Shown here piece after piece: positions 47,426 through 63,668 of a stretch of DNA of 64,000 nucleotides. This DNA comes from an uncultured Chroococcidiopsis sp. (GTDB lineage: Bacteria > Cyanobacteriota > Cyanobacteriia > Cyanobacteriales > Chroococcidiopsidaceae), in assembly GCA_964248365.1 (NCBI GenBank), contig CAXTYC010000019.1, forward strand, positions 1-64,000. Direction: 5' to 3'. How positions within the stretch are numbered: position 1 is the first letter of the stretch; every line of letters starts with the position of its first letter. The position numbers and the translations under genes were made by a program. Below the pieces are notes generated by a model, which was not told the DNA's origin, ran no database searches, and was given only the letters and a program-made list of their open reading frames with translations.

Positions 47426-47503
47426 GAGTTTTTTAAGGTTTTAAATTAAATTTCAAATTCCCATCTGAATGATTCTATTGTATAATCGTAGATCGTGACA
47501 CCT

Positions 47504-47588
47504 GGAGAGGTGGCCGAGTGGTTGAAGGCGCAGCACTGGAAATGCTGTTTAGGGAAACCTAACGTGGGTTCGAATCCCACCCTCTCCG
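47504..47588 (+). tRNA. tRNA-Ser(GGA)
   Basis: Acceptor GGAGAGG/CCTCTCC, anticodon arm CAGCA-CTGGAAA-TGCTG, long variable arm and T-loop GTTCGAATC. Confidence 0.96.
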
Positions 47589-47931
47589 TTGAATCAGTTA
47601 TCAGTTATCAGGCGCGCAGTTATCAGTTATTTTCTAGTTTTTGCGTTGGAAGTGAGAGTTATCCACTTGTCCTATAAATTGGTTGATTTCAATTAGGTTT
47701 AAATATCCATCTGACACTTTTGGTAACTGGTAACTGATATCTGTTAACTGACAAAAGGCATCTAAATAATTTATCGTAGGTAATTCATCAGTATTTTTAC
47801 GTGAAATCTTCATTCTTTTAGGAAATTTAATGAAGATTGTATAAACACCTATAGGAATGGTTAGACAACTACCTAGCTGTTCTTGTATGTTTTTATACAT
47901 ACAGTCAACATTATTAGAATCAATAACTACT

Positions 47932-48936
47932 ATGGATGTTCAAGAAATTAAAAGTGCAGTTAGAATTCATGAATATATTGGACAATTAGAAAGATTAACT
48001 AAATTATCACTTAAAGACTCTCCAATAATCTTAGGTTCTCCCACTAGAAAAATTGTATATGATATACCTATTTCAAGCAAACCTTGCTCGGAGTATGTAG
48101 AACAGCTATATGAAGATATTAGTGAGCATGATTTATTGCTTCAAGCATTAAGAACAGGCTGGCATTATATAAATTCAAACCAAAATATCATTCCAACTAC
48201 TAAAGAAAAATATTTTCAGCAATTGAATTCATCTCAGGCTTTTACAAAAGCCAAACAATTGGGCTACCAACTGCCAGCAAATTGTTTAAAAGCAAAACAA
48301 TTCTGTTATGGACAGTATGAAGCTTATTCTGCTATTCATGAACTCTTGCAGGGCAGAGCTCTGGGAGTTTGGTCGTCCAACTGTAAGAGCAATTTTATGC
48401 ATAGCTATGCCGAATTTTACAAAACAGTTAAACTAATAACTTCTCAATTTATAGTTCCTAGCTCAGGTTATCAATTTTCCATTCCTTATATTTTTGACCA
48501 GTTATGGGTAATTTCTCATGGAATAAATCAAGTGAGATTGCTAGGATTAGAGGTAGCAGGTGAACAGCATTTCCTTAACGGAGGACAAAGTAAAACTTTA
48601 GGTAATGAAAGATATTTAGAAGAATTAGGTTATGAAACGTATCATGTAGCAAGTTGGTGGTGCAGGGTAGATCCTTATCGTGTCATCAGCGAATTTTTAA
48701 CTGAATCGGGTATTTTTCCCCAAGCAAGCGATTATTTAATCGGGGCAGAACTAGATAGTATTGATAAATATGTGTGTGGAATTTGTCATGCACCTATGGT
48801 AAGATTGGGTTGGGATTGGATACAAAAATGTCAGATGGGCGGTGAGACAATATTCGCTCATAAACACTGTGTCAGTCGTAAAATGACTGAGGCAAATCAG
48901 ATTAGAGGAATAGCCTTGCGATCGCAAAGATGCTAG
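47932..48936 (+). CDS. Hypothetical protein with possible DUF559/Vsr-like nuclease fold and C-terminal Cys/His motif
   Basis: AT-rich ORF (track start 47857). LEVAGEQH...ERYLEELGYETYHV resembles the ExDGxxH...L...G pattern; CGIC...HKHC near the C-terminus. Confidence 0.55.
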   Translation: MDVQEIKSAVRIHEYIGQLERLTKLSLKDSPIILGSPTRKIVYDIPISSKPCSEYVEQLYEDISEHDLLLQALRTGWHYINSNQNIIPTTKEKYFQQLNSSQAFTKAKQLGYQLPANCLKAKQFCYGQYEAYSAIHELLQGRALGVWSSNCKSNFMHSYAEFYKTVKLITSQFIVPSSGYQFSIPYIFDQLWVISHGINQVRLLGLEVAGEQHFLNGGQSKTLGNERYLEELGYETYHVASWWCRVDPYRVISEFLTESGIFPQASDYLIGAELDSIDKYVCGICHAPMVRLGWDWIQKCQMGGETIFAHKHCVSRKMTEANQIRGIALRSQRC

Positions 48937-50224
48937 CACTTAGCACAGCACTGATGGGAACTGTAATTAGCCATGCCCCTGCGATTCCTTGCAAAGTTTT
49001 AAATTGAATTGATTTTATATTTTGAACTAAACCAATTCCAACTACACCACCTACAAGGGCGTGGGATGTGGAGACAGGTAAACCGAGTCTGGAAGCAAGC
49101 AAAATTGTAGTAGCAGTTGCTAATTCAGCGCAGAAACCGCCACTTGGTTGCAGGGGAATAATCCCAGATCCAATTGTAGCAATAACTTTTTTGCCCCACA
49201 TGGCTAAACCTGTGACGATGCCAGCGCCCCCAAGTACTAAAATCCACAAAGGAATGGTAATGCCATTTAAGGGAACGTCGCCTGTGCGACTAATGTACAC
49301 AATCGCCGCTAAGGGAGCGATCGCATTTCCCACATCATTAGAACCATGAGCAAAAGCGACAAAGCAAGCACTCAGTAGTTGGTATCGTGCCATGATTTGC
49401 TCTACGAGTGAATGAGGGGCTAGGGGCTGGGGGCTAGGGGCTAGAGGATTTTGGATTTTGGATTTTGGATTTTGGATTATATCTCCTCTGCCCCCCTGCC
49501 CCTTTGCCCCTCTGCCTTCCAACTGTCTCCAGCTAGTAAGAGTGAGCGCAACGGCGGCGATCGCCCCTAAGATTAACGGTACATCGTGGGCTGGAAGATG
49601 AAAGCCCCAACGTTCTGCTAATAAAGCATATATTGGCTGACTTACAAAAGGCAGCACAATTACACCAAACACACTTATCAGTGCTGTACTTAACCAAGGA
49701 ATCCACTGGGCAAGTTGCCCCAGTGGATTTTGCTCTTCTAAAATCCAACGCTTTACCAAACTGTATAATAAAGCCGAAATTATACCACTTACTACTGGTG
49801 TAATGATCCAGGCAAAAGTTATTTTACTAATCGATGACCAGTCAATTGCCTCGAAACCAATAGCCTCCGCACCAATACCAGCGATCGCACCTACAACAGC
49901 ATGAGATGAGGATACTGGCAACCCCCTAAATGTAGCAATTTGTAACCACACTCCCCCAGCCAACAGCACACAAACCATACCAACTAACAATAGCTGGGGG
50001 GTGGTTGCGAATAAAGCCGGATTCACAATTTCTGTTGCCAGCGTTTGGGAAACCTCTTGCCCAAACAGCACAGCGCCTGTAAATTCTAATATTCCTGCAA
50101 TAATCAGCGCTTGCCGCAGGGTGAGTGCCTTAGAACCTACTGACGTTCCCATTGCATTAGCAACGTCGTTTGCCCCTAAATTCCAGGCTACATAGAACGA
50201 TAAAAGGGCTACTAGAAATATCAT
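48902..50224 (-). CDS. PiT-family inorganic phosphate transporter
   Basis: GANDVANAMGTSVGS, HGSNDVGNA and LPVSTSH; in-frame tandem-repeat insert in the central loop. Confidence 0.93.
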   Translation of the reverse strand: MIFLVALLSFYVAWNLGANDVANAMGTSVGSKALTLRQALIIAGILEFTGAVLFGQEVSQTLATEIVNPALFATTPQLLLVGMVCVLLAGGVWLQIATFRGLPVSSSHAVVGAIAGIGAEAIGFEAIDWSSISKITFAWIITPVVSGIISALLYSLVKRWILEEQNPLGQLAQWIPWLSTALISVFGVIVLPFVSQPIYALLAERWGFHLPAHDVPLILGAIAAVALTLTSWRQLEGRGAKGQGGRGDIIQNPKSKIQNPLAPSPQPLAPHSLVEQIMARYQLLSACFVAFAHGSNDVGNAIAPLAAIVYISRTGDVPLNGITIPLWILVLGGAGIVTGLAMWGKKVIATIGSGIIPLQPSGGFCAELATATTILLASRLGLPVSTSHALVGGVVGIGLVQNIKSIQFKTLQGIAGAWLITVPISAVLSASIFAIARLFL

Positions 50225-50350
50225 TCAGGGAGTAGGGAGTAGGGGGGACAAGGGGACAAGGGGACAAGGGTACAAGGGGAGAATTGTTAATTACGAATTA
50301 CGAATTACGAATTATCATGACTTGTTCTAATCTATCTACTGGCTGCTATA

Positions 50351-50519
50351 AATTTTAAGTTTTATCAAATTTATCAGAAATTCTTATGCTTACCATTGAA
50401 TATCTTAATTTAAGATTTATAAACAATCTTAGGAGTTTTTGTCCTCACGACTGTACGTAAAGCCACTTAAATTTTAAGTTTTATAAAAAATTTCGGGAAT
50501 TTCTGTACTGACGATTGAA
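50351..50519. repeat. Three imperfect ~50-bp direct repeats upstream of the exporter operon
   Basis: Units start AATTT(T)AAG(T/A)TTTAT at 50351, 50407 and 50470 and end in ACCATTGAA, ACGACTGTA and ACGATTGAA respectively. Confidence 0.6.
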
Positions 50520-50724
50520 GAAATCTTTATTAAGCGCAAGTAAATCGAGGTAAAGCTTTGATGAAGACATTTGTAATATCTTGACAACGACTAGGGTAAT
50601 TGATTATTCGGTAAATTCTATGAGGGTTCTATACTCACTAATAAGTTGGAAAACAACTTGCTTTTTTAAAAAAACCTCCCGATTCGGAGAGAAAAAGGTC
50701 TTGGGAAACATTGGGTTTTTCCCA

Positions 50725-50753
50725 TTATCTGTAGTAAATCTGATTACAGATAA
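50725..50753. promoter_or_regulatory. Inverted repeat TTATCTGTA-N11-TACAGATAA with nested GTA-N8-TAC (NtcA-like) core; candidate operator
   Basis: Perfect 9-bp arms; TAGAAT (-10-like) at 50775; ~90 bp upstream of the exporter ATG. Confidence 0.5.
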
Positions 50754-50842
50754 ATAATTGGCTTGGCTTAAAGCTAGAATAGCCTTTTGTTAAAGAAAAT
50801 TAAATCTGAAAATTTAGTAAAGTAATTTTGAGAGGCTGAGCA

Positions 50843-53800
50843 ATGAATCAAAGCTTGGACAGTTATAGTCTGCATCCATCAGGAACATTGCCCAACGCAT
50901 CCCCAAGTAGTGAGGCTATCCTCAGCTTTTTAAGGAGCATTCAAGCAGACAATAGCGGGGCTTTAGCCTTTAGTCAGGCATTTGAGATTCTAGATTTTCA
51001 AATCGGTGATGAGCTTGCTGATTATACTAGTACCGCTATAGCACAAAATTCCGTTCAATCTGAACAAAGTACAAGATACTACTACATAATTTGCACAGGT
51101 AGGGTACGGCTGCTGGGATTCGATTTGCAACAGCAGCGGCAAGTTTCGGCGATCGTGCTGGAGGCTGGGGAGACATTTGGCGCAGAACATTTATTTAGCA
51201 ATCAGCCAGGATTAACCCTAGCGATCGCAGCTAGTACAGGGCAAGTTGCCCGTATCCCCATTGGTGAGTTAAAGCGATGGTTGGAGAGAGTGCCGAATCT
51301 AGGAGAATATTTACTTCAACAAGCCAGAGAGCGGCAATGCCTGGTATTCTTTAAAACTGCTACCCTTTTGCGATCGCTTTCAAGCCATGAACTGCGGCAA
51401 CTGTTACCTTACTTAAACGAAAAACGCATCGAGCGAGGCGAGTCAATAATTGCCGCAACTGAGCCTGGTAGTGGTTGCTTTTGGCTAGCAAGTGGGCAGA
51501 TTCAGAGTCAGTCGAGCGCATTATTACCACCAACTATAGGACAGAGTTGGGGAGAGCCAGCACCCATCGGGACAGATTGGGTTGCCGAAACAGACTTATT
51601 GGCTTACCAACTAAAGAGAGAAAATTGGCTAGATGCTAAAGCGATCGCGCCAATGTTGCCAGATTTATCTGCCCACGAAGGCAATGGAGTTCTAGATAGC
51701 AATGGCAACGGACACAAAAGGAGGTCCGCTACTTCAGCCAGAAATTATTCTCCACCAGTCCAATTAAGAGTCAATCAAAAGCAACAACCCCAACCTGAAC
51801 AAAAGGTTCCTTTCTCCCAGTCTGAACCTGCAAAAATTGATTTTCCTAAACCAGTCATCCAAATCATCAGTAAAGGGATTTGGCAAGCTCTACCCTACAT
51901 TGAGCAGCAAAGTTCATCTGATTGTGGTGCTGCGTGTTTAGCCATGATCAGCAAATACTGGGGAAAAAACTTTACCATCAACACTTTACGCTCTTTGGCT
52001 GATGTAGACAGATCTGGTGCTTCCCTCAAAGGAATAGCCCAAGCGGCCGAAACCTTGGGATTTCACGCCCGTCCAGTCCGAGCAAGCTTGAGTCGCTTGG
52101 AGTCACTGAGCAATCCTTGGGTTGCTCACTGGGAAGGAAATCACTACATCGTTGTCTACCGAGTAGGGGGCGATCGCGTTTTGGTTGCTGATCCAGCTAT
52201 TAGCAAGCGGTGGCTGTCGCGCCAACAGTTCATCGATGGCTGGACTGGTTATGCCCTACTCCTCGACCCTACCTCGCGTTTGCAAGCCACCCCAAACGAG
52301 AAAGTTTCCCTGGGTCAATTCTGGAATGCGGTTTTGCCCTATCGCTCCCTGATCTGGCAAATCGTCGGTATGTCCCTCCTGCTTCAGGTTTTTGGCGTTC
52401 TTACCCCCTTGTTCACCCAGATCATTCTCGATCAGGTAGTGGTGCAAAAAAGCTATGTCACCCTGAATGTATTTGCGATCGGGCTACTATTATTTAGTGT
52501 CTGGCGCATTGGCTTGACAGCAACGCGCCAGTATATGCTTGACTACTTTTCCAATCGCTTTGACCTGACGCTGATCAGTGGCTTTATCAACCATACCTTG
52601 CTGCTGCCGCTGAAGTTTTTTGAATCCCGTCGCGTGGGGGATATTATTACCCGCGTGCAGGAAAACCAAAAGGTACAAGTATTTATCACTCGTCAGGCAA
52701 TATTGTCTTGGTTAGATGCTTTTACGGCAGTTGTTTACATAGGACTAATGTTCTACTACAACTGGCGGCTTGCTTTTCTGGTAATAGGCTTAATTCCCCC
52801 AATTGTCATCTTGACTTTGGTAGCTACTCCTTGGTTGCGACGAGTATCAAGGGAAATTTTTAATGCATCGGCGGCGGAAAACTCCTTGCTGGTAGAAATG
52901 CTAACTGGCGTAGCTACCGTTAAAGCAGTGGCGGCTGAACGAGAAATTCGCTGGCGTTGGGAAGACCGCTTTACCAGCGCTCTAAACGCGCAATTCCGAG
53001 GTCAGAAGCTGGCAAATGGCTTACAAGCAATTGGTGGATTAATTAATACCTTGGGTAGTACAGCCTTGCTATGGTATGGCGCGACGCTGGTGATTCAAAA
53101 CCAGCTAAGTATTGGGCAGTTTGTAGCTTTCAACATGATGATTGGTAATGTCATCAACCCAGTTTTGTCTGTCGTGGGTCTTTGGGATGAGTTGCAAGAA
53201 GTGCTGATCTCGGTTGAAAGGCTCAATGATGTCTTTAGCGCGCAAACCGAAGAAACCCCTGGACAACCAATGCTAGTTTTGCCTCGCCTAGGGGGAGAGG
53301 TGCGATTTGAGAATGTTACGTTTAAATACGATCCAGACTCTGAACGTAACACGCTGCAAAACATTTCTTTTGATGCAACAATCGGGCAAACCGTTGCTAT
53401 TGTTGGGCGCAGCGGTTCTGGTAAGAGTACCTTGGTAAGTTTATTACAAGGACTTTATCACCCTACCAGTGGTCGAATTTTGATCGATGGGCATGATATT
53501 CGGCATATTTCTCCCTCTTCGCTACGTAGTCAATTAGGGGTAGTGCCACAAGAGTGTTTCTTGTTCTCCGGTACTATCCAAGAAAACATTACCTTGTATC
53601 GATCTAATTACACCCTAGAAGAAGTGACAGAGGTTGCCAAATTGGCAGAAGCTAATGCTTTTATTCAAGATATGCCTTTGGGATATAACACACCAGTGGG
53701 GGAACGGGGAACATCGCTGTCTGGGGGACAACGGCAAAGAATTGCGATCGCCCGTGCTTTGTTGGGCGATCCGCGCATTCTCGTGTTGGACGAAGCAACT

Positions 53801-54025
53801 AGTTCCCTTGATACCGAATCCGAACGCCGCTTTCAGCAAAATCTCAATCGGATCAGCCGCGATCGCACTACTTTCATCATTGCTCATCGCCTATCAACGG
53901 TACGTCATGCTGACTGCATTCTAGTCTTAGATCGAGGTATTTTGGCTGAATCCGGCACTCATGAGCAACTGATGGCTCTCGAAGGTATTTACTACCACCT
54001 AGCCCAACAGCAGCTCGATCTCTAA
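50843..54025 (+). CDS. Peptidase-containing ABC transporter (cNMP-like domains + C39 peptidase + TMD + NBD), HetC/HlyB-like
   Basis: C39 QQSSSDCGAAC, HWEGNHY and VADP (catalytic C/H/D present). NBD GRSGSGKST, LSGGQRQR, LDEATS and IAHRLST. Confidence 0.95.
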   Translation: MNQSLDSYSLHPSGTLPNASPSSEAILSFLRSIQADNSGALAFSQAFEILDFQIGDELADYTSTAIAQNSVQSEQSTRYYYIICTGRVRLLGFDLQQQRQVSAIVLEAGETFGAEHLFSNQPGLTLAIAASTGQVARIPIGELKRWLERVPNLGEYLLQQARERQCLVFFKTATLLRSLSSHELRQLLPYLNEKRIERGESIIAATEPGSGCFWLASGQIQSQSSALLPPTIGQSWGEPAPIGTDWVAETDLLAYQLKRENWLDAKAIAPMLPDLSAHEGNGVLDSNGNGHKRRSATSARNYSPPVQLRVNQKQQPQPEQKVPFSQSEPAKIDFPKPVIQIISKGIWQALPYIEQQSSSDCGAACLAMISKYWGKNFTINTLRSLADVDRSGASLKGIAQAAETLGFHARPVRASLSRLESLSNPWVAHWEGNHYIVVYRVGGDRVLVADPAISKRWLSRQQFIDGWTGYALLLDPTSRLQATPNEKVSLGQFWNAVLPYRSLIWQIVGMSLLLQVFGVLTPLFTQIILDQVVVQKSYVTLNVFAIGLLLFSVWRIGLTATRQYMLDYFSNRFDLTLISGFINHTLLLPLKFFESRRVGDIITRVQENQKVQVFITRQAILSWLDAFTAVVYIGLMFYYNWRLAFLVIGLIPPIVILTLVATPWLRRVSREIFNASAAENSLLVEMLTGVATVKAVAAEREIRWRWEDRFTSALNAQFRGQKLANGLQAIGGLINTLGSTALLWYGATLVIQNQLSIGQFVAFNMMIGNVINPVLSVVGLWDELQEVLISVERLNDVFSAQTEETPGQPMLVLPRLGGEVRFENVTFKYDPDSERNTLQNISFDATIGQTVAIVGRSGSGKSTLVSLLQGLYHPTSGRILIDGHDIRHISPSSLRSQLGVVPQECFLFSGTIQENITLYRSNYTLEEVTEVAKLAEANAFIQDMPLGYNTPVGERGTSLSGGQRQRIAIARALLGDPRILVLDEATSSLDTESERRFQQNLNRISRDRTTFIIAHRLSTVRHADCILVLDRGILAESGTHEQLMALEGIYYHLAQQQLDL

Positions 54026-54480
54026 CTTACCCTCCCAGCTTGCCAGATCCTCTGGCAAGCTATCCATCAACTACAAACTGTAATTCGATAACAGAAACTC
54101 GCCCAAAAAAAAATTGCCCATATAGCAATTTAAACCTAATGTCAACTCTGGTAGAACCACTGAAACTTAGACAAGTTATAGTGAAAATGCAACTTATTAA
54201 ACTTATGGAAATTAACGTAATTGAGTTGTGAATTTATGTGTAAGTTTATACAACCTAACCGCTGATTATTGATTTGTCTGAATTGGGCAAATGTGGTAGG
54301 GTGAATTGAATATAGATGAAAAGCTAATTCATAGAAATTACTGAAAGAATTTGTGCAAACAATAATAATGTTTATAACTTACCTATATAGAATAGAAATA
54401 CTTAATCTAAGTAACAATTTATGCTAGTTTATCGAAGAGTTGGATTGCTAGATCAAATGTATTAAATTGGGGTCACTGTT

Positions 54481-56070
54481 ATGCCAAAGCAAACTGTACC
54501 ACTGCCGATCGCTCGCACTAAAGTTGATTCTCACCCAGCTAATCCAAGCTCGAAAAGAGAAATTAACTCACAGCCAGTTACAGAGTTACCAAATAAAGCA
54601 AGTGCTGGCTTGTCATCGGTTAAATCTGAAAGCAATTGGTCGCCCGCTGTACAGAATGTCTTAGAACAGCCGCCCGCATCCTTTCCAAGACAGTTACTCA
54701 TGGGAGGATTGATTTTCTGTCTTGCATTTATTGGTTGGGCTTGGCTGGGGAAAATTGAGGAAGTAGGTCATGCCCAGGGGCGGCTAGTACCGCGAGGAGA
54801 AGCATACAAAGTCAACCCTCTTGATCTGGGCAAGATCATGCGAATCAATGTTAAAGAAGGTGACACAGTTAAAGCTGGACAGGTACTGGTTGAACTGGAT
54901 ACTCAAATAGCCACTAGTGAAGTCGATCGCCTCAAGCAAACGCTTGCTGGGTATCAAGATCAGTTAAAGCAGAAGCAAGCACTAATTGAAAAAAACCGTC
55001 AGGAAGCTAATAGCCGTTCCTTGTTAGCTAAAACTAATCTACAGATACAAGATGCCCTGATCAATGCTGCCAAGTCAAAGGCTGCAACTAGCCAGGAATT
55101 GCTGGCACAAATGCAAACAGAGAAAGCTGCTAGTCAAACGAGAATCCAAAGGCTAAAACCACTTACATCTGTGCGTCAAGAGCGACTAGCACAACTAAAA
55201 TCAGATGTGGCGGCGCATCAGGAAAGAGTTAATCGGCTGAAAAAACTAGTAGCAGATGGGGCGCTTTCTAAGGAATATTTATTTAGAGCGCAGCAAGATC
55301 TAAGCGCTAGTCAAGCAGCAATTACCCAAACTAAATTACAAGAAGGTGCGAACACTGACGATCGCCTGTATGAAGCCGAAAAAAACCAGCGCGATCGTAC
55401 CTCAACTATTACCCAACAACAAGGGGAACTAAAACAAGCCTTGGTAGAAATTCAAAGTCTCCAAGCACAGTTAAACCAAAAAATAGCTGAATCAAATATC
55501 GATCAGCTAGAAGCACAGCAGCGAATACAGCAATTAGAAGTCGAAAAAACTCAGCTAAAATCCCAAATTGCTGAAACGCAAAATCTACTAAACAGAGCGA
55601 GAACGCAATTAGTACAAAAGTTTCTCTATGCTCCAGTTGACGGCGTAGTATCATCGCTCAACGTTCGCAACGTAGGTGAAGTCGTACAGCAAGGACAAAC
55701 AATTGCAGAAGTAGCTCCCACAACCGCACCTCTGGTTCTATCTGCTAGCTTACCTAATTCCGAAGCTGGTTTTATCAAACCAGGTCTGCCAGTGCAAGTT
55801 AAATTAGACGCTTTTCCCTATCAGGATTTCGGTATCGTTAGTGGCAAAGTCACTTCTATCTCTCCTGATACTAAACAAGATGAGAAGCAAGGTCTAGTCT
55901 ATAAAGTTGAAGTAGCGCTTGATCGTAATTATGTCAATACTAATGGGCAAACCATCCAATTTAAGGCTGGTCAAACTGCTACGGCAGACATTATTATCCG
56001 TCACCGTAGCATTGCTGATGTATTGCTCGATCCACTCAAGCAGCTGCAAAAAGGCGGTATGAATTTATAA
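54481..56070 (+). CDS. HlyD-family type I secretion membrane fusion protein
   Basis: TM helix, VKEGDTVKAGQVL, long coiled coil, APVDGVV and KLDAFPYQDFG. Confidence 0.94.
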   Translation: MPKQTVPLPIARTKVDSHPANPSSKREINSQPVTELPNKASAGLSSVKSESNWSPAVQNVLEQPPASFPRQLLMGGLIFCLAFIGWAWLGKIEEVGHAQGRLVPRGEAYKVNPLDLGKIMRINVKEGDTVKAGQVLVELDTQIATSEVDRLKQTLAGYQDQLKQKQALIEKNRQEANSRSLLAKTNLQIQDALINAAKSKAATSQELLAQMQTEKAASQTRIQRLKPLTSVRQERLAQLKSDVAAHQERVNRLKKLVADGALSKEYLFRAQQDLSASQAAITQTKLQEGANTDDRLYEAEKNQRDRTSTITQQQGELKQALVEIQSLQAQLNQKIAESNIDQLEAQQRIQQLEVEKTQLKSQIAETQNLLNRARTQLVQKFLYAPVDGVVSSLNVRNVGEVVQQGQTIAEVAPTTAPLVLSASLPNSEAGFIKPGLPVQVKLDAFPYQDFGIVSGKVTSISPDTKQDEKQGLVYKVEVALDRNYVNTNGQTIQFKAGQTATADIIIRHRSIADVLLDPLKQLQKGGMNL

Positions 56071-56144
56071 AACTCAATTTTTCTGTGCAGCGATATAGCA
56101 TCTACCCAATGAAATCGACTTTTTAAATCAAAAGGGTGAAACTT

Positions 56145-56549
56145 ATGACTGGGCGAATTCCTTTTTCAGATACCAGAGTTAACAAAACTATTCACGACGA
56201 GCAACTAAATCAGATCATTGAAGCAATTTTGGCTGGAAAGTATTCCTGGGCTTGTTTTTTACTCCTACGCTGTACTGGTTACGATCCATTACATTACATA
56301 CCCTATCGCACATACAACCGATTGTTGAAAGAAAACTGCCAACATGGCAAATCAAGGATACAAACAACCGATAAGATCAAACTTGATAACCAACGTGAAG
56401 TTAATAATAGTAGATCTTCACAAGGATGTTTAAGCAAGATTAAAGACCTGGGTTACTTAGAGGTTGTTGGTAAGCAAAAAGCACAGGTGCGCGGTGGTAT
56501 TCTAAGTCAGTATCCGCTGTTTAACAAAGTCTTCACAGCACTCAAGTAA
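56145..56549 (+). CDS. hetP: HetP-family protein
   Basis: [46 protein letters not shown]. Family-level call; alternative GTG start at 56136. Confidence 0.85.
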
Positions 56550-56730
56550 ACTAGATTTAGAGCTACCATTGATTGTTTTCTAAAAGCTACAACAAACAGG
56601 CTCAATCTAATTATTAATAGATTGAGTCAACTTTTTTATAGCAACCTAACTCCTACCTAGTTCATTTGGATAGGTTTTTATATTGACTAAATCTGAAGTT
56701 ATCTTACAAAAGTACTGGAATTAAAAATAC

Positions 56731-56743
56731 TGCCAAAATGGCA
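56731..56743. promoter_or_regulatory. Palindrome TGCCA-AAA-TGGCA upstream of precursor 1
   Basis: Identical 13-mer at 58964-58976 upstream of precursor 6; TATAGT lies 22 nt downstream here. Confidence 0.55.
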
Positions 56744-56841
56744 ACATACCTCTAAAGCAGTTAGTTATAGTTTAAACATAGCAACTAACAAATGTTGTTT
56801 CAGGCAAACAAATTCTTTCTAGTTATTGTAGGAGACAAACA

Positions 56842-57060
56842 ATGATTATTTCTGATTTGAATCATCTAGAAGTTGTATCGGAAGCATCCAGCGTTGTCGG
56901 TGGCGGAAACAATTCTCTCGATTTCTACCTAAAAATTACCAAACAGGCTAATGTTTCCGTAATCAAACAGGAAGCTAATGCTGCTGCTGTCACTTTTAAG
57001 GGAAATGCAACAGCTACAGCAACCAATAAAGCAACAGTAGTGCAGCTTAACCAAGCTTAA
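56842..57060 (+). CDS. Double-glycine-leader secreted peptide 1 (curlin-like core)
   Basis: Leader MIISDLNHLEVVSEASSVVGG; RBS AGGAG. Confidence 0.88.
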   Translation: MIISDLNHLEVVSEASSVVGGGNNSLDFYLKITKQANVSVIKQEANAAAVTFKGNATATATNKATVVQLNQA

Positions 57061-57204
57061 CGATTGCTGTAAGTATCATCTAGATATGTTTAGCAATAAT
57101 ATTGCTGCCTGGGCAACATTATTGCCAGGAGCAATTAAGGTGTTGCTCACAACAACCAAGACAAATTGCCGTAAACACACAAACTATTTTGTAGGAGACA
57201 AACA

Positions 57205-57423
57205 ATGATTATTTCTGATTTGAATCATCTAGAAGTTGTGTCGGAAGCATCCAGCGTTGTCGGTGGCGGAAACAATTCTCTCGATTTCTACCTAAAATTT
57301 ACCAAACAGTCTAATGTCTCCGTAATTACCCAGGTAGCCAATGCCGCTGCTATCTCCACTAAGGGAAATGCAAAAGCTACAGCAACCAATACAGCAACAG
57401 TAGTGCAGCTTAACCAAGCTTAA
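57205..57423 (+). CDS. Double-glycine-leader secreted peptide 2
   Basis: Same leader; core is a variant of peptide 1. Confidence 0.88.
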   Translation: MIISDLNHLEVVSEASSVVGGGNNSLDFYLKFTKQSNVSVITQVANAAAISTKGNAKATATNTATVVQLNQA

Positions 57424-57567
57424 CGATTGCTGTGAGCAGCATCTAGATATGTTTAGCAATAATATTGCTGCCAGTCTAGCAAGATTATTGCCGGAGCAAT
57501 TAAGGTGTTGCTCATAACAACCAAGACAAATTGCGGTAAACACAAACTATTTTGTAGGAACAAGACA

Positions 57568-57804
57568 ATGATTATTTCTGATTTGAATCATCTAGAAGTT
57601 GTGTCGGAAGCATCCAGCGTTGTCGGCGGCGGCGGAAACAAAAATAACAAATACAAACCTGTCAAAATCGACCTAAAAATTACCGATCAGTCTAATGTCT
57701 CCGTAATCTATCAGGAAGCTAATGCTGCTGCTGTCACTTCTAAGGGAAATGCAACAGCTACAGCAACCAATACAGCAACAGTAGTGCAGGTTAACAAAGC
57801 TTAA
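57568..57804 (+). CDS. Double-glycine-leader secreted peptide 3
   Basis: ATG at 57568 by alignment with the other copies; Lys/Asn-rich insert after GG. Confidence 0.88.
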   Translation: MIISDLNHLEVVSEASSVVGGGGNKNNKYKPVKIDLKITDQSNVSVIYQEANAAAVTSKGNATATATNTATVVQVNKA

Positions 57805-57948
57805 CGATTGCTGTAAGCAGCATCTAGATATGTTTAGCAATAATATTGCTGCCAGTCTAGCAAGATTATTGCCGGAGCAATTAAGGTGTTGCTCATAACA
57901 ACCAAGACAAATTGCGGTAAACACAAACTATTTTGTAGGAACAAGACA

Positions 57949-58185
57949 ATGATTATTTCTGATTTGAATCATCTAGAAGTTGTGTCGGAAGCATCCAGCG
58001 TTGTCGGCGGCGGCGGAAACAAAAATAACAAATACAAACCTGTCAAAATCGACCTAAAAATTACCGATCAGTCTAATGTCTCCGTAATCTATCAGGAAGC
58101 TAATGCTGCTGCTGTCACTTCTAAGGGAAATGCAACAGCTACAGCAACCAATACAGCAACAGTAGTGCAGGTTAACCGAGCTTAA
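57949..58185 (+). CDS. Double-glycine-leader secreted peptide 4
   Basis: Identical to peptide 3 except K>R at the penultimate residue. Confidence 0.88.
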   Translation: MIISDLNHLEVVSEASSVVGGGGNKNNKYKPVKIDLKITDQSNVSVIYQEANAAAVTSKGNATATATNTATVVQVNRA

Positions 58186-58332
58186 CGATTGCTGTGAGCA
58201 ACATCTAGATATGTTTAGCAATAATATTGCTGCCTGGGCAGCAATATTATTGTCAAACTTAGTAATTTGATTGCTCACAACAACCAAGAGAAATTGCAGC
58301 AAACAAGCAATCTATTTTGTAGGAAGAAAACA

Positions 58333-58560
58333 ATGGTTATTTCTGATTTGAATCATCTAGAAGTTGTGTCGAAAGCGTCTAGCGTTGTCGGCGGAAAAGT
58401 AGGTATCGACCTAGATTTAAAGCAGAAGCAGAATCAAAAGCTGAGTATCAAAGGAGCCAATATTGGCATTATCAATCAAGTTGGTATTGCTACTGCTGTA
58501 GCTGTAAACTTGAATGGTAAAGCAGTTGCAAAAGCAGATGTTGAAAATAACATTAACTAA
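58333..58560 (+). CDS. Double-glycine-leader secreted peptide 5 (divergent core)
   Basis: Leader MVISDLNHLEVVSKASSVVGG; N/Q/I/V/A-rich core. Confidence 0.85.
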   Translation: MVISDLNHLEVVSKASSVVGGKVGIDLDLKQKQNQKLSIKGANIGIINQVGIATAVAVNLNGKAVAKADVENNIN

Positions 58561-58600
58561 TATTGGTTCCTACAGTAGGTAACAGCAACGGTAATCCTCA

Positions 58601-58830
58601 TAGGCTATGTTTGAAAAGTCAGTTTGCTGGGCTTGAAGGTATGAAGATTCAATAGAGGTATAACCTGACTTGTTAATCCGACCTCACCGATGCCCAATGG
58701 CGCGAGTTGGAACCCCTCATTGATTCCCTTGGTACTACGTGGGGGGTGAGCGCTTGAACATTAACAACAGAAGTTCAACAGTACTGTTTTCTATACGATC
58801 CCATGACTTACCTCCTTGGCAGACCGGAGA
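58601..58830 (+). mobile_element. Degenerate IS5-family relic
   Basis: End GGCTATGTTTGAAAAGTC; transposase fragments SDLTDAQWRELEPLI (58677-58721) and HDLPPWQT (58802-58825). Confidence 0.7.
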
Positions 58831-59060
58831 TTATTGGTTTTGCTGTTAGCAACAACATGGGGCTAAAGATTACCAAAATTTGCTTAAACGTTGCTTTCCC
58901 CTGTTTTTTAACCTTGCGAAGATAAGCATATTTATTATATTTATCGGTTTAAACGAAAGTATCTGCCAAAATGGCAATAAAAGTTGGATTATACTGGTTT
59001 AATTTAGGCTAGTTAGATCTCACACTAAAAACGAACTATTTGAATGGAGAGAGCAATCAA

Positions 59061-59294
59061 ATGATTATCATTTCAGACTTGAGCTATGTAGAAGTAGTTT
59101 CTGCATCTAGTATTGTAGGTGGAGCCAGCCAAGTTAATTCGGCAGAGTTTAGCACCACCACTAACACTAATGACTCGTCGGTTACAACAGGAGGAGCTTT
59201 TAATCTAAGTCCGTCTCACTCCACGCCCACACCCCTAGCAAACAGCACGATTTTACCTAATAACATCAAGCTCGAACAAGCGTTAGCTTTATGA
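59061..59294 (+). CDS. Double-glycine-leader peptide 6 (Ser/Thr/Asn-rich core)
   Basis: Leader MIIISDLSYVEVVSASSIVGG; RBS GGAGA. Confidence 0.78.
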   Translation: MIIISDLSYVEVVSASSIVGGASQVNSAEFSTTTNTNDSSVTTGGAFNLSPSHSTPTPLANSTILPNNIKLEQALAL

Positions 59295-59747
59295 ACAAAC
59301 GATCTGCGTGCTGACTCAAAAGGCTTCAAAGAGCTAGATGTAAATTTTAAGGTTTGGAATGTAGTAGCCGCTGGTAAGTTAAGAAGCTTTCAGCGGTTTT
59401 ATTCTTGCAACAAGATTCTGATTCACAGCTTTCGCAAATATAATAATAGTTAATTTATCTAGTAAAAGTATACCATTTGTATCAAATTATCCTCCAGCAA
59501 ATGTCTTGCCACCAGCAATAAGTATCAATTCACGATTAATTGAACATTATTTTTAGAGAGCTTTCTAAGTAGTTAGAGATAAAAATATTACATAAATAAC
59601 TATAATTTACTAAACTAAGTTACAATTTATTTTTGTTAAAATAGAGAGAAAAATTGAAATATAGATACTATATTTGTAATTACAGGGAACTAAAATTGTC
59701 CTGCTCTATCTCGCTTACAAAAATTAATTGCACCGAGGGAGAAACCT

Positions 59748-60011
59748 ATGATTATCTCCGATCTCAACTATTTGGAAGATGTTTTTGAAGCAACCACTAT
59801 TGGAGGAGGATTAAACTATAACATTGACTCGCTTATTACATGGGCTAACAACCTTGTCGAGGACGTTGACAAAAATCTAAAACTTAATAATGCTTCAGTC
59901 AATCAGGAGAAACCAGCTTTAAAAGTTGGAAAAGTTGAAAAGAAAGTTGAAAACAAAGCCTCTGGTAGTTATGCCATAGCTTATTCTAGCGTGACCTACT
60001 CTACAACTTAG
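59748..60011 (+). CDS. Double-glycine-leader peptide 7
   Basis: Leader MIISDLNYLEDVFEATTIGG; RBS GAGGGAG. Confidence 0.82.
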   Translation: MIISDLNYLEDVFEATTIGGGLNYNIDSLITWANNLVEDVDKNLKLNNASVNQEKPALKVGKVEKKVENKASGSYAIAYSSVTYSTT

Positions 60012-60272
60012 TAGAGTAGCCAAGGTATCAAAATTTAGCATTATCTTGAAACAAGAGCAGTAACTTTGCACGTCAATATTAACTTCCGATTGAAGTTACT
60101 GCTTACATTTATTGAGCTTTTTGATTGAGGTTATTTCATTTAGGTGGAGTATATTTTTTATTTACTTAGTCTTTCTATAGAGCAAGACGTTTATTAGAAG
60201 CTCAATAATTTAAGTAGCTTGTTTTTAGTATACTTATAGTGGTTTGCCACTTGCAAAACAAAGGCTATACGA

Positions 60273-61013
60273 ATGTCCAGCTTGCAAAATATACAGGTTC
60301 AGCCAGAGCAAATTATAGAATTTTTGCAGAAAAATATACGTTACAAAGAAATATATCAAGAAACTTTGTATCAGCAAGTGATTACTCAAGCTGCTGGGGA
60401 GAGAGGGATAACTGTCACTGATGAAGAAATTCAGGCAGAAGCAGATCGCCAACGTCTTGAAAAGCGGCTAGAGAAAGCTGCGGATACGTTGGCATGGCTA
60501 ACAGAGCAGATGATAACTCCAGATGATTGGGAGGCAGGAATTCGTGATAAAATTTTGGCTAAGAAACTAGCTAACCATTTATTTGCCCAAGAAGTAGAAA
60601 AATTTTTTAATCAAAATAGGCTTGATTTTGATCGAGTCTTACTCTATTCTTTTGTTGTTACCGATCAACAGCTTGCTCAAGAAATTTTCTATCAAATTGA
60701 AGACAAGGAAATCACCTTTTACGAAGCTGCTCATTTGTATGACATTGACAAGAAGCGCAGACTTCAATGCGGTTACGAGGGAGAGCTTTATCGTTGGAGC
60801 TTAAAGCCAGATATAGCAGCAGTTGTATTTAGTGGCAGACTAGGAGAAGTGTTTGGTCCCTTTAGTACCGAGCAAGGATTCCATCTGTTGATGGTTGAAG
60901 AGTTTATTCCGGCTGAATTAACACCCCAAAGGTATCAAGAAATTCTTGATAGGGTATTTCAAGAATGGCTGGTTAATGAACTCAACTATTTACTCTATAA
61001 TCAAGTCAGTTGA
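60273..61013 (+). CDS. PpiC/SurA-type peptidyl-prolyl isomerase-like protein associated with peptide-export clusters
   Basis: ITVTDEEIQAEAD, AQEIFYQIED.EITFYEAAHLY and GPFSTEQGFHLLMV. Confidence 0.87.
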   Translation: MSSLQNIQVQPEQIIEFLQKNIRYKEIYQETLYQQVITQAAGERGITVTDEEIQAEADRQRLEKRLEKAADTLAWLTEQMITPDDWEAGIRDKILAKKLANHLFAQEVEKFFNQNRLDFDRVLLYSFVVTDQQLAQEIFYQIEDKEITFYEAAHLYDIDKKRRLQCGYEGELYRWSLKPDIAAVVFSGRLGEVFGPFSTEQGFHLLMVEEFIPAELTPQRYQEILDRVFQEWLVNELNYLLYNQVS

Positions 61014-61103
61014 TATAATTTTTTAAATAGTCGTCTATTAGTGCGATCGTAGGAGCGGTTATATATATTGCGATCGCACAAGAGTTAAGGGAGAATCTTA
61101 GTA

Positions 61104-61289
61104 ATGAACTACTCTAAAGTCTTTGTCAAACGCACATCACAAGATGGAGAGGTTGTTACACAAGCAAAAAGTGTGGTAGTTACTTCTGGTAACTCACAAT
61201 GCACAGTGAGTCAAACCGTTACTGTTGAATCCTCGGAAAATAGTTATAGCAGTAGCTCAACATCTAGCTCTACTACTGTAAGTATATAG
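61104..61289 (+). CDS. Small Ser/Thr/Val-rich hypothetical protein (61 aa)
   Basis: RBS AAGGGAG; VSQTVTVESS and a poly-Ser tail; no GG leader. Confidence 0.65.
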   Translation: MNYSKVFVKRTSQDGEVVTQAKSVVVTSGNSQCTVSQTVTVESSENSYSSSSTSSSTTVSI

Positions 61290-61300
61290 TAGATAATTTA

Positions 61301-61418
61301 GTAGGGTGGGCATTGCCCACCATGATCAAAAGGAGTAGGCAATGCCCTAAATCATTGGTGAACAGTGAGCATTGCCCACCATTATCAAATATCAAATTGG
61401 TGGGCATGGGTGGCATAC
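61301..61418. repeat. Cluster of REP-like GTAGGGTGGGCATTGCCCAC palindromes
   Basis: Four degenerate copies between convergent genes. Confidence 0.75.
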
Positions 61419-61435
61419 TAGGGTAATCTTTCAGC

Positions 61436-62278
61436 TCACCTTGAGCTAAAACCTTTTCTTTTCATTTTATACCCCATACCCATTACCCATAAGAGTGAAC
61501 CTAAGATAGTTGAAGGTTCAGGAACACTAGCGCTTTCCTGTGCATTAACTTCGGCATAATTTGTCTTAACTTCTACTAAAGTTAGATTGGTTAAGACATC
61601 AAAAGTACGTGAAAAAATCCCCCCTGTTGATGCTTGAGCAATTTCTTGCTGATTTCCAAAACTAGTTTCTAAAGTAGTTTTCCTTAGATTCAAGGTGAAG
61701 CCGTTACTAGTTTTGTAATTAAGATAATCATTGTTACCCATAGTGGCTAAATTACCCTTGAGGGTAAAGGAATCCAAGTAAATCCAATTATCCTGATTAG
61801 AGGTTTCATACAACTTTAAAGAGATATCACCAGTAGCATTTGCAGCTTCAAATTTGGGGTTGTCTATTGATGTAGCTAGGTTTAAGCCAGCGTTGAAGTT
61901 GAAAGAGAAAGTTTCACCACTATTTACACGAAAGTTATAGCCTACAACGGCGGCTTTACTTTGTGCTAAACCAGAGTATTCGCTACCATTTCCATTAGTT
62001 CTACTAAAGGATGAATTGTCAGCATAAAATGGAGTGTCTACGACGATTAAATCATTTACTGCTGAAGCCGTAACCGTTCCATTACTAGCAAATGTGTCAG
62101 CATAAGTCTCAGCCAGAATCAAAACATCTGAAGGATCGTGACTAAAGTTACCAATTTGTACTATTGACTGGGAATTACCTAAAGTAGCAGCTAGAAGGGG
62201 TGAAGTAGTTAAACCTAAAGCAAGCGGTGCTATAGGAGTAATTAGTAATAAAAAACTCTTAGCATTGATATTTTGCAC
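61436..62278 (-). CDS. PEP-CTERM sorting-domain surface protein
   Basis: Signal peptide; C-terminal VPEPSTILG, then a TM segment and KMKRK. Confidence 0.9.
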   Translation of the reverse strand: MQNINAKSFLLLITPIAPLALGLTTSPLLAATLGNSQSIVQIGNFSHDPSDVLILAETYADTFASNGTVTASAVNDLIVVDTPFYADNSSFSRTNGNGSEYSGLAQSKAAVVGYNFRVNSGETFSFNFNAGLNLATSIDNPKFEAANATGDISLKLYETSNQDNWIYLDSFTLKGNLATMGNNDYLNYKTSNGFTLNLRKTTLETSFGNQQEIAQASTGGIFSRTFDVLTNLTLVEVKTNYAEVNAQESASVPEPSTILGSLLWVMGMGYKMKRKGFSSR

Positions 62279-62446
62279 TACAAAAATTCTCCTTGTATTT
62301 ATTTATAAGCCAGTCTGGCTAATTAGCTTCAACTATTAGCTCAAAGAAAGCAACTTAAAGGTTGCATGATTATTAACCCAACTCTTTTTTTGAGCAAGTG
62401 TCTTTAAAAATTAAGGCTGTAAAATTATGTATTAAAAATAAATTCA

Positions 62447-62609
62447 CATATTGCACCAGTTTCAATAACCGCCCCTTACTCCTTTTTTGGGCTAATAGCT
62501 CAAGTCCATTGAAATGGACTGCAACCCAATGTTAGTCTTTTTAAGAAGACTTTGGCTTGAGAGCCTGTTAATTAATTAGCAGGCGGACTAAGGAATAGGT
62601 GCAAGATCT
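62447..62609. mobile_element. MITE-like element, ends CATATTGCACC / GGTGCAAGATCT, with internal hairpins
   Basis: Terminal inverted repeats; internal AGTCCATTGAAATGGACT, AGTCTTTTTAAGAAGACT and GCCTG...CAGGC hairpins. Confidence 0.6.
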
Positions 62610-62942
62610 AAGATAAATAGATGGTGCAAATGTTGGCAGTGTAGCTCCACTACCAAGTGATTAATTATACGAAACACATAAATATCAATATATAAGACCT
62701 GAGAAGATACTTGCAGATCTATACTTTTAAAATCTGCAAACACGATGGTTACAACGCACGGTATACAATGTATATCTTAGGGTAAATTTGATAACTTTTA
62801 GTTTACGACCACTTTCAGGTTATTCAGTATTAAACTACTTAATAAAGATTTATCGTTACAAACTATTTTATGTTAAAAATAACACTATTAACATAAAAAA
62901 TACGTAAATTTACTGATATTTATTGGAAGGATTTATGAAGCT

Positions 62943-62981
62943 TGCAAGGTAGGGTGCGGTTATTAACACACCCTACCTTGC
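62943..62981 (-). terminator. Hairpin right after the HAD gene stop (terminator or REP-like)
   Basis: GCAAGGTAGGGTG...CACCCTACCTTGC, 13-bp stem. Confidence 0.55.
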
Positions 62982-63668
62982 TTATGCTTTGGCAATGGCT
63001 GATTTTGCTAGGGGTGAATTGTCATACTGAGCTAGCAGATCTGCTGGATCGTCATAGATAGCGATCGCATCCTTCAGTTGACTATCATCAAAGCCACCAC
63101 AACGAACAGCAATTACACCAACTCCAGCCTTGGCAGCCGACTCGATATCATAAGGCGTATCACCCAGCATCAGCACCTCGTCGGGTTGCAGCCCAATCTT
63201 GCCTAATGCAGCTTCTACCAAATCCGGTTCTGGTTTCGATTTTTCGGCATCGCTGGAGGTGGTTGCATCATCCTGACTCAGCAGATCGTCAACAGAGGCG
63301 GCTTTTAGCAACACTGAAAGTTCTTGACTCGTCGCTGAACTGGCAATGAGCAACCGTAACCCCTCACCCTGCATCTTCTGTATCAATTCCCGTGCGCCCT
63401 TTGCTGGGGCTAGATTTGAGCCAAATTTGTTGATAATCAATTCTTTGCGGCGATCAGCAATTTCTTTGCCCTTCCCTTCGTTACCAGAAAGTCCAGGCGC
63501 GAACTTAGGCACAATCTGATCGCCCCCCATACCAATCAAAGATCGCACATCTTCAAACTTAACCTCGTAGCCAAATGCTGCAAATGCTTCTACCCAAGCT
63601 TGGGCGTGGGCATCATTGCTCAAAACAAGTGTCCCATCTACATCCAAAAGCACACCCTGTAATGCCAT
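62982..63668 (-). CDS. HAD-superfamily hydrolase
   Basis: DVDGTL, ASS, KPEPD and GDTPYD motifs I-IV. Confidence 0.93.
   Translation of the reverse strand: MALQGVLLDVDGTLVLSNDAHAQAWVEAFAAFGYEVKFEDVRSLIGMGGDQIVPKFAPGLSGNEGKGKEIADRRKELIINKFGSNLAPAKGARELIQKMQGEGLRLLIASSATSQELSVLLKAASVDDLLSQDDATTSSDAEKSKPEPDLVEAALGKIGLQPDEVLMLGDTPYDIESAAKAGVGVIAVRCGGFDDSQLKDAIAIYDDPADLLAQYDNSPLAKSAIAKA

Follow-up and report, generated by a model that had tools for sequence, protein, structure and literature searches.

We analysed a gene cluster at positions 50843 to 61289 of a 64,000-nucleotide (nt) stretch of DNA from an uncultured Chroococcidiopsis sp. (the window), in which a peptidase-containing ABC exporter, a HlyD adaptor, a HetP-family protein, seven small peptides with a common double-glycine (GG) leader and a parvulin-like protein are encoded on one strand. 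This led to several new findings. Judged by sequence, the exporter appears to group with HetC-like proteins, in a genome without HetR and NifH, and the accompanying HetP appears to carry an internal copy of the precursor leader, whose GG is retained beside the exporter and often lost without it. Two previously missed genes, one for a short protein (ORF61) and one for a PEP-CTERM/RTX β-sandwich surface protein (the partner), travel with the cluster, and the peptide cores are Cys-free with a two-residue (β) periodicity. A scenario that would join these findings, which we offer tentatively, is that the cluster could be the complete ancestral form of hetC-hetP, a widespread type I-secreted surface fibre system with β-hairpin subunits, a cytoplasmic chaperone, a leaderless accessory subunit, a PEP-CTERM/RTX anchor and HetP control via the internal leader; heterocyst-formers would have co-opted its exporter-HetP switch, and HetP would therefore be HetC's missing substrate. 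The features are as follows.

50843..54025, +: long-type peptidase-containing ABC exporter assigned to the HetC clade, 1060 amino acids (aa), with cyclic nucleotide (cNMP), C39, transmembrane (TMD) and nucleotide-binding (NBD) domains in that order (Pfam, catalytic residues, tree)
54481..56070, +: HlyD periplasmic adaptor (TIGR01843, score 253 against a cut-off of 209)
56136..56549, +: HetP-family protein in which an internal leader-like motif with a terminal GG precedes a 16-aa tail (NF037966, score 112 against a cut-off of 45)
56599..56628, +: terminator-like hairpin 3' of hetP (hairpin scan, weak)
56842..57060, +: precursor 1, 72 aa, with a 21-aa leader and a 51-aa core (leader regular expression and profile)
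57205..57423, +: precursor 2, 72 aa (leader expression, tandem repeat)
57568..57804, +: precursor 3, 78 aa (leader expression, tandem repeat)
57949..58185, +: precursor 4, 78 aa, 99% identical to precursor 3 (leader expression)
58333..58560, +: precursor 5, 75 aa, divergent core (leader expression)
59061..59294, +: precursor 6, 77 aa, different core with 4 Pro (leader expression)
59748..60011, +: precursor 7, 87 aa, different core (leader expression)
57061..58332, +: spacer region with long RNA hairpins 3' of precursors 1, 2 and 4 (folding z, inverted repeats)
60273..61013, +: SurA/parvulin-like protein (Pfam Rotamase, 39 against a cut-off of 21.7, and SurA_N; TIGR04500 below its cut-off)
61104..61289, +: ORF61, a conserved leaderless 61-aa protein rich in Ser, Thr and Val (locus survey, alignment)
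61436..62278, -: surface partner with a signal-like N terminus, a β-sandwich domain of about 220 aa and a PEP-CTERM tail (TIGR04155 above its cut-off, AlphaFold)

Exporter, HetP and the internal leader

The exporter has a complete catalytic set (C361, H434, D450, Walker A at 855, the signature at 959, Walker B E984 and the H-loop), with Pfam placing the cNMP domain at 75-148 and C39 at 351-478, ahead of the TMD and NBD. A preliminary description of this DNA had given it cNMP-like domains in the plural, of which one is supported and a second is not (hhalign probability of 0.7, against 0.55 for a reversed control). Identity over the C-terminal 730 aa of the exporter is 65-88% with window-type exporters, 54-60% with five HetC-like proteins, 47-55% with a paralogue that precedes HlyD-SurA and 30% with Alr7014, which lies on a separate branch. 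HetC-like rows were assigned by synteny (an exporter then HetP, without HlyD or precursors) together with the numbering of their catalytic residues (C346-359, H419-432). In a quick tree of 44 of the 63 rows, from which the rows of 19 near-duplicate loci were dropped, window-type and HetC-like exporters fall on one side of a branch with an SH-aLRT of 99.9. Topology tests on quick trees of 30 rows reject a grouping of the HetC-like proteins with the paralogue (p-AU 0.033), and both a position nested within the window-type exporters and one sister to them stand (p-AU 0.26). HetC thus placed would be the closest characterised exporter to that of the window, with HetC-like proteins in or beside its clade. 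This HetC/HetP link, to which the exporter tree and the HetP motif point, had not been seen in the preliminary description. The window genome (99.97% complete) lacks HetR, which was detected in 4/4 named heterocyst-formers used as a control, and yields no NifH match over the cut-off, which rules out a heterocyst role in this organism; its HetP therefore cannot act in heterocyst commitment.

The leader-like motif of HetP, whose gene at 56136-56549 is the sole copy in the window genome, spans aa 102-121 (nt 56439-56498), ends in GG and is followed by the 16-aa tail. A single profile comparison of the precursor leader with the HetP tail gave a probability of 95 and an E of 2e-8; single HetP tails scored against the leader hidden Markov model (HMM) gave modest values, 7/40 reaching 10 bits against 0/800 shuffles. 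Our HetP survey comprised 65 rows, 6 of them without a motif match by the pattern used. The GG is kept in 40/40 HetPs that have both the motif and an adjoining exporter of the window clade. For comparison we used a family (f5) that we take to be the heterocyst-formers, a presumption because HepA is not a clean marker (5 genomes outside f5 are positive); its HetPs without an adjoining exporter (n=14) end the motif in GG in 3 cases, in GS in 3 and in neither in 8. GS is also a permitted cut site. Three forecasts set in advance held, with a GG in L099, which has the full cluster beside it, and none in L100 and L101. One f5 locus (L083) comprises a split exporter, a 157-aa HlyD remnant, HetP and a parvulin gene, and resembles a decay intermediate between the full cluster and hetC-hetP.

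A HetP motif, KIxDLxYLEx10GG, was published earlier and ascribed to an M16 peptidase (PMC3140520). The substrate of HetC is a stated open question, with no double-glycine gene near hetC, and HetP-derived peptides have been raised as a possibility (PMC10986499; see also PMC9045159). We too found no leader-bearing gene beside hetC-like loci, and in a literature that included few subscription papers the HetP motif is not tied to the HetC peptidase. What the complete loci supply is a putative recognition sequence for the HetC exporter clade, one that HetP appears to carry. Several observations argue against HetP being simply a substrate: a HetP with GFP at its C terminus still works, and over-expressing it overcomes the loss of the HetC peptidase (PMC4133259); in addition, a window-clade exporter is missing in 15/22 f5 genomes, a full-length N-terminal match being present in the other 7/22. 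It is possible that HetP binds the exporter peptidase without being cleaved.

Precursors, cores and the genes that travel with them

When the leader HMM was run across 32,503 frames of the genome, seven matches had an E of 1.7e-7 or less and the eighth an E of 3.9, a gap because of which the seven GG-leader ORFs are not a chance set; a regular expression returned the same seven. The small ORFs with a common leader that were listed earlier are thus the only ones of that kind genome-wide. The seven peptides do not count as independent, since precursors 1-5 are tandem DNA duplications spaced by 363-384 nt. The spacers after precursors 1, 2 and 4 fold into long hairpins with inverted repeats (z of -2.4, -4.3 and -5.8), which are possibly 3' stabilisers, and the spacer after precursor 3 is a repeat of the one after precursor 2. 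None of the seven precursors has a family match in Pfam or NCBIfam, where the HMMs for cyanobacterial tandem bacteriocin (CTB), NHLP and Nif11 precursors match 0/7, and a similarity to CTB of 0.81 in the ESM Atlas is at chance level.

From 168 precursors we obtained 166 usable and 101 non-redundant cores, and it is in the latter that the β periodicity is seen. Residues of the same class recur at lag 2 with a frequency of 0.361, against 0.269+-0.005 after shuffling, and a 180-degree hydrophobic periodicity is significant in 43/101 cores, against 8/101 control pieces; helical periodicity occurs in only 5/101. Cys is missing from 97/101 cores, S, T, N, A, Y and F are enriched, and net charge ranges from -17 to +11. 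Among 65 of the 86 homologues of the window cores, selected by hand because their cores are alike, Q49 does not vary, and G60 and N68 reach at least 90% conservation. Pro is missing from 3/7 window cores. The possibility that the cores are homologous to the partner or to ORF61 was rejected, the scores being no better than those of reversed controls.

The gene set recurs across cyanobacteria. A leader-based scan of named genomes, from which 77 loci were kept out of the best 80 of 151 confirmed matches, found the parvulin gene in 57, HlyD in 55, the C39 exporter in 52, HetP in 42, the partner domain in 30 and ORF61 in 14; in the 42 loci that are 18 kb or longer, the corresponding counts are 39, 37, 37, 24, 24 and 12. 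An evenly drawn set of 150 further genomes of the phylum, with 57 of the negatives from one family, has precursors in 18 genomes, the partner in 16 and ORF61 in 7. The partner is found in 14/18 precursor-positive genomes and 2/132 precursor-negative ones, within 20 kb of the precursors in 9/14, while all 7/7 ORF61 matches lie within 10 kb of precursors. Outside f5, HetP occurs in 12/128 genomes, the very 12 with precursors, and lies no more than 5 kb from these in 11. The named parts of the cluster had been listed correctly within 50843..61289, as Pfam, NCBIfam and the coordinates confirm, from the intact C39/ABC exporter to the gene described as a peptidyl-prolyl isomerase (PPIase); ORF61 (61104-61289) and the partner gene (61436-62278, minus strand) had been omitted though they are part of the system.

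The partner domain, about 220 aa long, is met in two arrangements: one has a signal-like N terminus and a PEP-CTERM tail, the other an RTX tail. The domain makes up a discrete family, numbering 493 representatives at E<=0.001 and 464 at 1e-10. Its AlphaFold model is all-β (pLDDT 95.7), and the best hit of a fold search, among generic β-sandwich and carbohydrate-binding module-like rows, has a Z of 7.9 (8okh, root-mean-square deviation 3.1, 122 aligned). The domain has no named family, no fold match of Z 8 or above and no sequence match in the PDB, and in the ESM Atlas it matches hypothetical proteins only. No paper naming the partner or ORF61 was found in the literature described above. Two unnamed conserved components, and a β-sandwich domain without a clear structural match, are added to this cluster class. 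The partner-domain gene has a second, fragmented copy at G000:C5:172060-173033 with no precursors near it. RTX proteins rich in Ser, Ala and Thr are encoded at 18/77 loci (L002:11522-13069, L016:5148-6638 and 16 more), mostly between the precursors and the parvulin gene, and have N-terminal repeats of that composition and Pro-Ala/Thr stalks.

The parvulin-like protein is likely cytoplasmic because it has no hydrophobic signal or membrane segment. At what we take to be the active-site His positions, mapped by eye, the first is Tyr in 59/59 homologues and the second His is kept in 39/59. PPIase catalysis is doubtful on these residues, and a holdase role would suit the protein better than isomerisation; of the earlier proposal of a PPIase acting as a pre-export chaperone, the cytoplasmic chaperone is the plausible part. 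Other C39-related exporters are encoded elsewhere. Two of the short type lie at G000:C12 near 49255, in a locus that includes a small GG peptide with a Cys/Gly/Lys-rich core, and at C48 near 18745, where the exporter clusters with Alr7014. Three HlyB-type exporters with weak C39 matches (G000:C46, C5 and C54) each have a parvulin-like gene beside them, and the catalytic Cys motif is missing in the two checked.

As to the remainder of the locus, the hairpin after hetP is weak evidence because the scan's 11 sites compare with 10 expected by chance, and a promoter scan gave chance-level results only. A hairpin of two short palindromic repeats lies at 61290-61435, between the convergent ORF61 and partner genes (z -2.9). 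The flanking genes, for a PiT phosphate transporter (48902-50224) and a HAD hydrolase (62982-63668), do not recur in related loci; farther out, at 47446-48936, there is a stretch that resembles a tRNA, to judge by ORF shadows, and then an ORF of 359 aa without a Pfam or NCBIfam match.

Function of the exported peptides

PCATs, the peptidase-containing exporters of this type, cut on the C-terminal side of GG and pass the product out by way of HlyD and a TolC-like channel. In the mechanism we propose, the HetC-clade type I system would likely remove the 21-residue leader after GG, and the small, unmodified β-strand peptides would leave through HlyD and a TolC-like channel (a TolC-like gene is present in the window genome, below the cut-off) and form, once outside, a polymeric fibre or matrix attached to the surface. 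The parvulin-like protein may keep aggregation-prone precursors soluble before export, the PEP-CTERM/RTX β-sandwich protein may anchor or decorate the polymer or tie it to polysaccharide, HetP may engage the C39 peptidase via its internal leader copy, as substrate or regulator, and the cNMP domain could gate export. Heterocyst lineages would likely have retained the exporter and HetP as hetC-hetP after loss of HlyD and the peptides. That the cores are exported β-strand subunits of a surface matrix or fibre is suggested by their β periodicity, the tandem array with its long 3' hairpins and the co-travelling surface proteins, and we regard the case for it as evenly balanced. Several points weigh against it. 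Positive charges of +3 to +4 on five of the seven window cores would also be in keeping with antimicrobial hairpins, cores 6 and 7 are weak in β periodicity, with core 7 scoring helical (z 2.4), and a single-chain precursor model is of low confidence (pTM 0.29, without assigned secondary structure), a fold search with it returning nothing at Z>=2. The short window cores, compared with the longer cores elsewhere, score no better than or barely above reversed controls, so that the family-wide reading rests on the leader and the periodicity. The compared genomes are kin, and counts drawn from them are not independent: 14/18 RTX loci are among closely related Microcoleus-like records. The partner is unlinked to precursors in 5 genomes, all of one genus, and 4/18 precursor-positive genomes have no partner match among the 12 candidates scored per genome. 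The two exosortase-like genes of the window genome match below the cut-off and, given the ATP-grasp, GNAT or GT41 enzymes of some loci, the cores may be modified elsewhere.

Clusters like this one are by convention read as bacteriocin loci (PMC3140520), and the cores could be unmodified class II bacteriocins or microcins that kill competitors, possibly forming fibres too. The five cationic window cores, amphipathic in β geometry, would suit this, and Acinetobacter microcins both kill and form amyloid, with an immunity ORF that had gone unannotated (PMC13188072). We nevertheless consider it unlikely, as most cores of the family have a neutral or acidic character, lack Cys and are non-helical, the precursors occur together with surface-anchored and RTX partners, and the cluster has no conserved small membrane ORF as a gene of its own; the 10 small hydrophobic ORFs checked against related loci are frames overlapping real genes or are without relatives there. 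An immunity gene elsewhere in the genome, or a soluble immunity protein, could conceivably exist. By analogy with the Acinetobacter microcins (PMC13188072), fibre and killing roles need not be mutually exclusive, so that the earlier proposal of structural subunits rather than bacteriocins fits the periodicity, array and surface partners but was too strong in its exclusion of bacteriocins.

It is likewise rather improbable that the cores are diffusible cell-cell or developmental signals, with HetP relaying the state of the exporter inside the cell. HetC regulates development and depends on its peptidase, ATPase and cNMP domain to do so (PMC10986499), and HetP acts in the same pathway (PMC4133259); however, no receptor kinase or regulator recurs among the neighbours present in at least 5 loci, and cores of 50-90 residues in tandem, near-identical copies would favour bulk production. 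Least probable, to the point of being very unlikely, is that the peptides are precursors modified by enzymes encoded elsewhere, or soluble, non-polymerising surface binders of mineral, ice or polysaccharide. A few loci do carry ATP-grasp, GNAT(-TPR) or GT41 enzyme genes, and the cores show a flat Ser/Thr/Ala alternation, but these enzymes are absent from the window cluster and none is general to the family. Should the surface matrix or fibre prove right, cyanobacteria that form mats, crusts and biofilms may use a common class of "bacteriocin" clusters to make surface fibres.

Comparison with known systems

The layout of the cluster is already in print as the "group II bacteriocin cluster" (PMC3140520; further passages in PMC4558948). 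Like the window, group II clusters (Ava_4372-4382, asl1930-asl1938, cce_2673-2677) have a long cNMP-C39 exporter, HlyD, SurA/rotamase, a HetP with KIxDLxYLEx10GG and arrayed precursors of 70-100 aa (PMC3140520). The M16 peptidase or extra modification gene that separates group II from group I in that paper is not among the 16 ORFs scanned with Pfam and NCBIfam in the window (47857 to 63668), in agreement with the earlier statement that no lanthipeptide, YcaO or radical SAM gene is present, and M16 was reported in two genomes only (PMC4558948). ORF61 and the surface partner are not mentioned for group II clusters in the accessible text of PMC3140520, and "IISDL" does not occur in its available supplements, where precursors appear without sequences. 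Among papers that included few from subscription journals, we found no functional test of a group II cluster.

The analogy drawn earlier with PteB/EbfG of Synechococcus elongatus holds for the mechanism, since there too small GG peptides encoded in an array, EbfG1-4, are secreted by a C39 exporter that works with HlyD (PMC4997328, PMC9981879), and a matrix/amyloid role has been shown for EbfG1-3 (PMC9981879). An amyloid/matrix role has also been proposed for the Anabaena group III GG peptides, asr5139-alr5148 (PMC12267927). Both of these systems belong to group III, with a short exporter and neither SurA nor HetP, whereas the window has a long exporter and both genes. Membership in PteB/EbfG was ruled out, PteB being compared through Alr7014, its best homologue in Anabaena (57.7%; PMC12267927), and EbfG through the published hotspot motif A(F/I/Q)NI(G/S) (PMC9981879): the window exporter, with 30% identity to Alr7014 and on a separate branch, belongs with the long HetC clade and not with PteB, and the motif is found in 0/166 cores. 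The Alr7014 cluster (L078:5798-12119), an EbfG-like candidate in PMC12267927, is annotated as a microviridin cluster (MvdC, MvdD, precursor).

MccAB1 of Acinetobacter, an amyloid class II microcin, is a PCAT-exported GG peptide that forms fibres, to which the window peptides may be likened from their genes; it kills and has a two-helix membrane immunity protein, the like of which is not seen in the window (PMC13188072). PEP-CTERM proteins have been tied to polysaccharide adhesion and biofilm (PMC12188702). Closest of all would be HetC of Nostoc PCC 7120, which has the same domain order, cNMP-C39-TMD-NBD, and equal catalytic spacing (C347/H420/E970 against C361/H434/E984 in the window; PMC10986499, PMC4133259), and whose gene is adjoined by hetP, as is that of the window exporter. 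The differences are that hetC-like loci are without HlyD and GG precursors (5/5), both of which the window has, and that HetC works in heterocyst differentiation while the window genome is without HetR and NifH. The cluster is real and a variant of a described class, for which the amyloid idea is plausible though not new, and the value of the finding is in the HetC/HetP link and the two added components.

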